Below are positions 40,944-41,369 of a stretch of DNA of 64,000 bases, in pieces. The position numbers and the translations under genes were made by a program. Every line of letters begins with the position of its first letter. Within the stretch, counting starts at the first letter, position 1. Source of the DNA: Escherichia coli (lineage in GTDB: Bacteria > Pseudomonadota > Gammaproteobacteria > Enterobacterales > Enterobacteriaceae). The notes beneath the pieces are model-generated. The model made no database searches, was not told where the DNA came from, and saw only the letters and a list, made by a program, of their open reading frames with translations. Location of the stretch: NCBI RefSeq assembly GCF_050320075.1, contig NZ_CP190018.1, one strand, 5' to 3'.

Positions 40944-41369
40944 TTAAAATGGTATTTCGTCCTCATACGGGTCATCCTGCTGGCCCGTCTGCTGCTTTGT
41001 TCTGTTCAGTGCGTCAGTAGCCTGCCCTTGCTGTCCTTTCCTGCCTCCTGGTCGCACGGTTCGCGCACTGATTACGCTGCCTGCGATGACCTGCCAGCCC
41101 TGCCGCATTTCCCCGTTCTGGTCTGTCCACTGGCTTATCTGCATGTTACCCGCCACGCTCACCAGTTCGCCTTTCTGGTGTTTTGCCAGTGCATCGGCCT
41201 GTCTGCCAAACGCCAGGACGGATAACCACATCGTCGCTGTTCCGTCATATGCCTGACTGCACGGAAGGGGAACAGCCATACTCACCAGCGCCATTGGTGT
41301 TCCCTTGCTGGTGGTTTTTAACTGCGGGTCAGCCACCAACCGCCCGTAAGCTGATATTTGTGCCGTCAT
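40944..41369 (-). CDS. single-stranded DNA-binding protein-like (SSB family)
   Basis: 141 aa; OB-fold-like N-terminal region, Gly/Gln-rich linker and acidic C-terminal tail DDPYEDEIPF (SSB ends ...DDDIPF); GGAGAG SD upstream. Confidence 0.7.
   Translation of the reverse strand: MTAQISAYGRLVADPQLKTTSKGTPMALVSMAVPLPCSQAYDGTATMWLSVLAFGRQADALAKHQKGELVSVAGNMQISQWTDQNGEMRQGWQVIAGSVISARTVRPGGRKGQQGQATDALNRTKQQTGQQDDPYEDEIPF

Follow-up and report, generated by a model that had tools for sequence, protein, structure and literature searches.

[quoted passage not shown] Within the window, the 64,000-nucleotide stretch of DNA analyzed in this work, the frame occupies positions 40944..41369 and encodes 141 residues plus a stop codon. 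An earlier note on this DNA gave exactly these coordinates and left the strand, which is the minus strand, unstated. The frame starts with an ATG that follows a Shine-Dalgarno sequence, GGAGAG, at a distance of 8 nt (41378..41383, minus strand), and according to the open reading frame listing its product ends in ...QQDDPYEDEIPF / ...TGQQDDPYEDEIPF. The description of this product as SSB-like was borne out by three profile collections. Specifically, it matches the Pfam SSB family (PF00436, E=1.4e-15, residues 4-99), scores 61 bits against NCBIfam TIGR00621 (curated cut-off 53.95), and matches PHROG 44, 'single strand DNA binding protein', with E=4.4e-37. Sequence searches of the PDB gave significant E-values for SSBs only, the best being the Thermus protein (5e-11), with E. 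coli SSB at ~1e-5. In a scan of 1.84 billion representative proteins, from which the 69 sequences of the alignment used below were drawn, 6865 matches were obtained at E<=1e-3, and nearly all named database relatives are annotated as SSBs. A RefSeq CDS with the same coordinates in a 100%-identical genome, WP_088544449.1, is likewise named 'single-stranded DNA-binding protein'. The identity of the protein is in this sense already known, and SSBs of mobile elements that end in a host-like tail are textbook knowledge.

The SSB assignment had been made contingent beforehand on an OB-fold, and an OB-fold is indeed present in the AlphaFold2 model of the protein. The mean pLDDT of this model is 87.5, with values of 94-98 for the blocks spanning residues 1-100 and of 54-71 for the C-terminal 40 residues. 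The predicted structure is a β-barrel (strands at residues 4-11, 16-19, 25-36, 44-54, 69-82 and 88-100) with one helix (residues 55-62), and all 50 of the 50 Foldseek matches listed for the PDB are bacterial SSB OB domains (probability 1.00, target-normalised TM no higher than 0.84). Three segments can be distinguished, all on the minus strand: an OB-fold ssDNA-binding domain, delimited by the AlphaFold2 model, the Foldseek matches and the retained aromatic residues (residues 1-103, 41061..41369); a short linker of sequence TVRPGGRKGQQGQATDALNRTKQQTGQQ, modeled at pLDDT 54-71 (residues 104-131, 40977..41060); and, as read from the translation, an acidic C-terminal tip, DDPYEDEIPF (residues 132-141, 40947..40976). 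Taken together, the sequence matches and the predicted fold indicate that the product of 40944-41369 is a genuine bacterial-type SSB with an OB-fold.

Comparison with the host protein (P0AGE0; PDB 1eqq/1eyg; the reference sequence used is identical to 1eqq over 178 residues) reveals a common architecture that differs in its details. Both proteins belong to the same Pfam/TIGR family, share the OB-fold, and place a disordered linker ahead of an acidic I-P-F tip. E. coli SSB, however, is essential, chromosomal and 178 residues in length, whereas the island SSB is accessory, island-borne and has 141 residues. Identity between the two OB domains is 27% (BLASTP), and the L23 loop region is shorter in the island protein. 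In the 69-sequence alignment, three of the four aromatic residues that stack on ssDNA in E. coli SSB, W54, F60 and W88, correspond to W48, F54 and W81 of the island SSB, and these positions are held across the family by W in 63/68, F in 68/68 and W, Y or F in 66/68 sequences, respectively. The fourth, E. coli W40, aligns to C37, at a position that is variable in the family, and H55, which lies at the subunit interface of the E. coli tetramer, aligns to L49, where most family members are hydrophobic. Since neither W40 nor H55 is conserved in the island SSB, its binding mode and oligomeric state could differ from those of the host protein. The linkers also diverge, with 28 residues in the island SSB versus 56 in E. 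coli SSB; that of the island SSB is Q- and G-rich, has a net charge of +4, and contains no PxxP motif.

With respect to the tail, the earlier note had called it canonical and had likened it to that of host SSB, and both descriptions hold. The protein ends in D-E-I-P-F. In the 69-sequence alignment, whose consensus tip is FDDxIPF, D137 and F141 reach at least 90% conservation. Its last 10 residues (DDPYEDEIPF) include five acidic side chains versus four in E. coli SSB (PMDFDDDIPF), and I-P-F closes both proteins. Y135 occupies the place of E. coli F171, such that an aromatic residue stands at -7 in each case. Proteins such as chi, DnaG, PriA, RecQ and ExoI bind SSB through its acidic tip, and a tip as acidic as that of the host, with the same I-P-F end, is what might be expected of a competitor that titrates host SSB partners. 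Alternatively, the protein could displace host or helper SSB on ssDNA; in either case helper replication or recombination would be slowed and the satellite would benefit. Satellites commonly interfere with the replication of their helpers, and at 27% identity between the OB domains neither mixed tetramers nor host-like cooperativity would be guaranteed, both of which are compatible with such competition. The tips of most relatives, however, are weaker and less acidic, and would make poor decoys.

This trend is evident among the 120 closest database clusters, in which the C-termini GDNIPF (50), GDGIPF (17), GDDIPF (11) and EDEIPF (8) were counted. When representatives were clustered at 50% identity, 64 of the 106 had a terminal F, and 38 a terminal [ILVMF]PF. 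As most close relatives carry the less acidic GDNIPF and GDGIPF tips, and some end in ...YDDDF, the range of partners may be narrower than that of host SSB. Selection on the gene was estimated from pairwise Nei-Gojobori comparisons with relatives, which gave a median dN/dS of ~0.14 (OB domain 0.14, linker 0.11, tip 0.24), values that are rough because dS is saturated in many pairs. These comparisons show purifying selection on the ssb gene as well as on its tip.

The element that carries ssb is an island of 8.2 kb at tRNA-Pro, in the order narP, yejO, island, tRNA-Pro, yejM. The integration target is tRNA-Pro(GGG) (46974..47050, minus strand, found with ARAGORN and by its repeat), which contains one att copy at 46979-46996; the distal att repeat, GGCACGAGAGTAGTTTAA, lies at the far end of the island (38796..38813), spans 18 nt and is 83% identical to the first. 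That ssb is encoded by an island, as had been claimed, is supported by the behavior of the flanks. Joined at the 18-nt att repeat, they align as one piece with ~99.5% identity to many E. coli genomes, and at least 80% of this artificial junction is covered in one place in 3784/5426 E. coli genomes. The joined flanks thus match an empty site, and the 8.2-kb segment is a real insertion.

The gene content of the island lies entirely on the minus strand. A tyrosine integrase (45523..46767; RefSeq, PHROG) is followed by an AlpA-like HTH regulator or excisionase (45078..45269), which RefSeq names 'helix-turn-helix transcriptional regulator' and which matches PHROG 66 and 2790 (excisionase/regulator families); related loci have Phage_AlpA at this place. 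An 'ash family' pseudogene comes next, and then two RNAs, both above their Rfam gathering scores: isrK sRNA (44597-44673, RF01394, 61.6 bits) and C4 antisense RNA (44485-44572, RF01695, 78.7 bits). They sit directly upstream of a gene for an Icd-like protein (44243..44431; RefSeq, PHROG), an arrangement like the RNA-based immunity of P1 immI or P4 that here heads the replication operon. A DUF4222 protein (43738..44025; RefSeq, PHROG) overlaps the start of the 711-residue DUF927 replicase, a predicted helicase/initiator (41606..43741; Pfam DUF927, E=9.5e-46; PHROG 1139 'DNA primase', E=1.8e-165; weakly matched by the SCC Cch helicase model). The ssb gene follows, and 35 bp downstream of it lies a gene for a ProQ/FinO-family protein (40372..40908; RefSeq), whose matches to the NCBIfam FinO and ProQ models (E=1e-17 to 1e-18) are both below the curated cut-offs. 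The start of a PerC-family regulator gene (40091..40375; RefSeq, PHROG 994 and 10396) overlaps the proQ stop. A 61-aa ORF lies between the Icd-like gene and that for DUF4222. The island ends ~1.3 kb past perC (38796-40090), with no annotated gene in that segment. A 69-aa ORF 3' of perC, at 39825-40034 (minus strand), is absent from the RefSeq annotation and gives a hit to PHROG 7206 (unknown function, E=1.2e-6); it could be a genuine small gene.

In terms of classification, the island has the features of a phage-inducible chromosomal island (PICI): an integrase at one end, att repeats, a size of 8.2 kb (the class spans ~8-15 kb), an AlpA-type regulator, its own replicase, and iterons flanking AT-rich DNA. 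Judged by sequence, its gene order matches that of Gram-negative PICI and capsid-forming PICI (cf-PICI) satellites. A P4-like satellite was also considered, as Ash, the Icd-like protein, C4 RNA and paired iteron clusters are all reminiscent of P4; the island was not classed as such because no equivalents of psu, delta or sid were found in it. Packaging and capsid-hijacking genes (TerS, Rpp/Ppi, or a capsid-portal-terminase set) were absent between perC and the island end. The island may be a reduced or decaying satellite variant, with a replication module that is perhaps no longer used.

Extended to ssb, this idea would make the gene a non-functional relic of a decayed satellite, to which the loss of the packaging genes of relatives and the presence of the 'ash family' pseudogene would correspond. 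The frame is intact, however, and is preceded by a good ribosome-binding site; its dN/dS of ~0.14 and conserved tip also speak against decay, as does the finding that several complete E. coli chromosomes from hosts as unrelated as deer, chicken, human, swine and frog share the 4 kb around ssb at 100% identity. We therefore consider a relic exceedingly improbable.

The spacing of the genes is compatible with a single leftward operon. DUF4222 overlaps the replicase gene and proQ overlaps perC, while the intervals between ssb and proQ and between the 61-aa ORF and DUF4222 measure 35 bp and ~40 bp, respectively. The sole larger gap between the Icd-like gene and perC is the 236 bp from the replicase gene to ssb. 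A simple scan of this gap found no sigma-70-like promoter and no minus-strand terminator, which suggests that ssb is co-transcribed with the replicase. The ProQ/FinO RNA-chaperone-like gene is found directly 3' of ssb in many satellites, and as the island encodes antisense RNAs (C4 and isrK), such a chaperone might serve them.

The replicase itself bears on how the island would be primed. Pfam recognizes only DUF927 in the 711-aa protein, whereas 920-aa relatives add Zn_Ribbon_Prim and Toprim_3. A replicase that has no primase domains in Pfam could leave the island dependent on host DnaG for priming. It could also point to a dedicated priming enzyme with the SSB as its OB-fold accessory subunit, as in the case of SCCmec MP, which works with CcPol beside a Cch/DUF927-type helicase. 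SCC elements pair DUF927-type helicases with small OB-fold SSB-like proteins (PMC7581432, PMC10061031). MP resembles the island SSB in being small and built on an OB-fold, and its gene likewise adjoins that of a DUF927/Cch-type self-loading helicase on an integrative element (PMC7581432, PMC10061031). It differs in being monomeric, in pairing with an A-family polymerase-like protein, and in having no canonical SSB tip. The island SSB is canonical by profile and by tip, scoring above the cut-off of the canonical SSB family and keeping the IPF end, and no gene for an A-family polymerase-like partner is present in the island. Moreover, the same SSB also follows a replicase that has Zn-ribbon and Toprim primase domains of its own, in the related locus L006. 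These features leave very little credence for a primase subunit.

The gap between replicase gene and ssb contains a putative origin (41446..41580), in which four direct CTTGTCCC iterons, an AT-rich spacer and inverted GGGACA / GGGACAAG repeats were identified by iteron count and from the sequence. The first three iterons are spaced by 21 nt. The CTTGTCCC octamer occurs seven times in the window versus 1.5 expected, and none of 100 shuffles reached seven copies. Two of these seven exact copies belong to a second cluster, found by repeat and motif search at 39166..39289, which consists of three GTCCC repeats, an AT-rich spacer, two copies of GGGACAAG and one GGACAAG, in an inverted arrangement as in the gap. 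The island therefore has two iteron clusters built on a CTTGTCCC / GGGACAAG core, each inverted around AT-rich DNA and lying ~2.2 kb apart, with the second at the island end. We take this pairing to resemble the ori plus crr of P4.

Inverted iterons around AT-rich DNA were also present in all four replicase-ssb gaps examined in relatives (L011:6073-6229, L002:7472-7700, L006:7687-7949 and L033:9417-9675), each of which has its own set. The iterons differ by replicase variant, being TAACCCGCAAAA in L011, TGTCTACC in the cf-PICI L002, and TGAACCAAC in L006 and L033; among the relatives compared, CTTGTCCC clusters are confined to the present island type. In L011, the central part of the replicase gene is 92.8% identical in DNA sequence to that of the island, and its 3' end has no blastn match. 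That this unmatched 3' end accompanies a different iteron suggests that origin specificity resides in the replicase C-terminus.

The association of ssb with a replicase extends well beyond this island. In 75 of 80 IMG/VR loci, ssb is preceded on the same strand by a replicase homologue whose end lies 170-1000 bp away, and this homologue is a 711-aa DUF927 protein, a 920-aa Zn-ribbon/Toprim/DUF927 protein, or a D5_N/DUF5906 protein. ProQ/FinO follows ssb in 30/80 of these loci, and PerC is frequent. The closest relatives that share a common integrase (87% identity), L011, L012 and L017, measure 12-13.5 kb. L011 carries TerS (L011:8832-9416, PHROG 57), and capsid, portal and TerL genes are found in L002-L005 and L008-L014. 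Overall, ssb almost always accompanies the replicase in E. coli PICI/cf-PICI satellites, and every gap examined contained iterons. The PICI/cf-PICI literature searched does not discuss this SSB, and no biochemical or genetic data on the island SSB, or on any PICI SSB, were found in it.

The E. coli PICI/cf-PICI SSBs (for example those of L002-L005 and L011), which NCBI also names 'single-stranded DNA-binding protein', are 65-98% identical to the island SSB at the protein level. Their satellites share with the present island the order replicase, iteron gap, ssb, then ProQ and/or PerC. The present island differs from them in its DUF927 replicase with its own CTTGTCCC iterons, in the EDEIPF tip of its SSB (GDNIPF or GDGIPF being commoner among the relatives), and in having none of their capsid, terminase and TerS genes.

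A tip of the form PY[GE]DxIPF was found with two unrelated replicase types, DUF927 and D5_N/DUF5906. The sharing of one tip by unrelated replicases fits a tip that is aimed at host proteins and not at the island's own replicase. We also considered whether the tip co-varies with replicase type, and rejected this because PY[GE]DxIPF occurs with both DUF927 and D5_N. One SSB subclade (IMG/VR loci L034-L086, for example L049 and L053) ends in ...PPYDDDF, which is acidic and has a terminal Phe without Ile-Pro, and this variant occurs almost only beside the 920-aa Toprim/DUF927 replicase type. As the YDDDF tips track a single SSB subclade, they provide no independent signal of a link between tip and replicase.

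The conserved synteny with replicase and origin favors, on comparative grounds, a role of the SSB in island replication. With regard to competition for the host SSB interactome, a fixed place beside replicase and origin across unrelated replicase types best fits a replication accessory factor, and the island contains neither an interference gene signature nor PADLOC matches. We accordingly regard competition or helper interference as an unlikely explanation of the gene. A link to defense was weighed as well, in which the island SSB would act as trigger, shield or decoy for SSB- or ssDNA-sensing systems such as Retron-Eco8 and DARNA. Two preprints report that phage SSBs activate these systems (bioRxiv 10.1101/2025.11.11.687766; 10.64898/2026.02.22.705581), and the divergence of the island SSB from host SSB would be in keeping with such a function. 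A PADLOC search of the island proteins, however, returned no defense gene, the synteny is with replication genes, and similarity to phage SSBs in the phage collection does not exceed 31%, such that a defense link appears highly improbable.

Homologues of the gene are widespread. In blastn searches, 1744 of 5426 complete E. coli genomes, about a third, contain ssb DNA homologues; at least 80% of ssb is covered in 1066 of these 1744, and one genome has as many as six copies. A 74%-identical SSB, P0091, is very common (1477 index blocks). The elements that encode it have the order int, alpA, DUF4222, D5_N/DUF5906 replicase, 85-aa ORF, SSB, PerC, capsid, protease, portal, head completion, connector, HNH, TerS, TerL, which is the capsid-forming PICI layout of published descriptions.

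Neither phages nor plasmids emerged as a source of ssb. A phage origin was rejected, as the best matches in the phage collection are at most 31% identical and come mostly from Gram-positive phages. A plasmid origin was likewise rejected: among the 'plasmid' matches of 52-86% identity, CP088587.1 is a chromosomal fragment with a cf-PICI, and the 86% match lies in a 4.9-Mb record. Nothing in the phage collection, in the inspected record CP088587.1 or in the 4.9-Mb record pointed to a recent acquisition of ssb from a known phage or conjugative plasmid. The records themselves deserve comment. CP088587.1 (L007) is a 32.6-kb 'plasmid' entry in which pntAB, ydgH and mdtJI flank the cf-PICI, and NZ_CP141089.1 is a 4.9-Mb entry filed as a plasmid that holds an SSB homologue; both look chromosomal. 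F-plasmid Ssb, phage HK620 SSB and similar proteins are also bacterial-family SSBs of mobile elements that keep an acidic ...IPF tip, although they have no close sequence relationship to the island SSB. Such proteins, with their host-like tails, probably add to the host SSB supply when ssDNA of the element arises in bursts. The island SSB lies in no conjugative leading-region context, and the island encodes no partner recombinase.

On balance, we think it likely that the protein, with its OB-fold, short flexible linker and acidic ...EDEIPF tip, is part of the replication module of a PICI-like island, where it would coat ssDNA and recruit host proteins. We infer ssDNA binding, tetramer formation, the partners of the tip, co-transcription and induction by a helper phage. 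A plausible course of events would begin with de-repression of the island, presumably by a helper phage, and transcription of the leftward operon (Icd-like, DUF4222, DUF927 replicase, ssb, proQ/finO and perC). The DUF927 helicase/initiator would then bind the CTTGTCCC iterons just upstream of ssb and melt the AT-rich spacer, and the ssDNA thereby exposed would be coated by the island SSB. The SSB tip could dock host readers of the SSB C-terminus, such as the chi subunit of Pol III, DnaG, PriA and others. In this way the host replisome might replicate the island at no cost to the host SSB pool, which would be supplemented during the replication burst.

With respect to significance, there is little discovery value in the protein itself, as the NCBI pipeline already names it an SSB, and SSBs with host-like tails are familiar from plasmids and phages. 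The context has modest value, namely the conserved placement of ssb shortly after the replicase gene, with iterons between the two wherever a gap was inspected. Beyond a role as replication accessory, PICI-type SSBs might constitute a dedicated adaptor with which non-DnaB replicases (DUF927 or D5_N, some of them lacking a primase domain) gain access to host Pol III and DnaG through the canonical tip, while the divergent OB domain and short linker keep the protein apart from host and helper SSB. We consider such a dedicated function improbable at present. If it were true, the SSB would be a determinant of satellite replication or helper interference and more than a spare copy, and should satellite replication or helper interference depend on the island SSB, the gene would offer a simple genetic handle on the recruitment of the host replisome.
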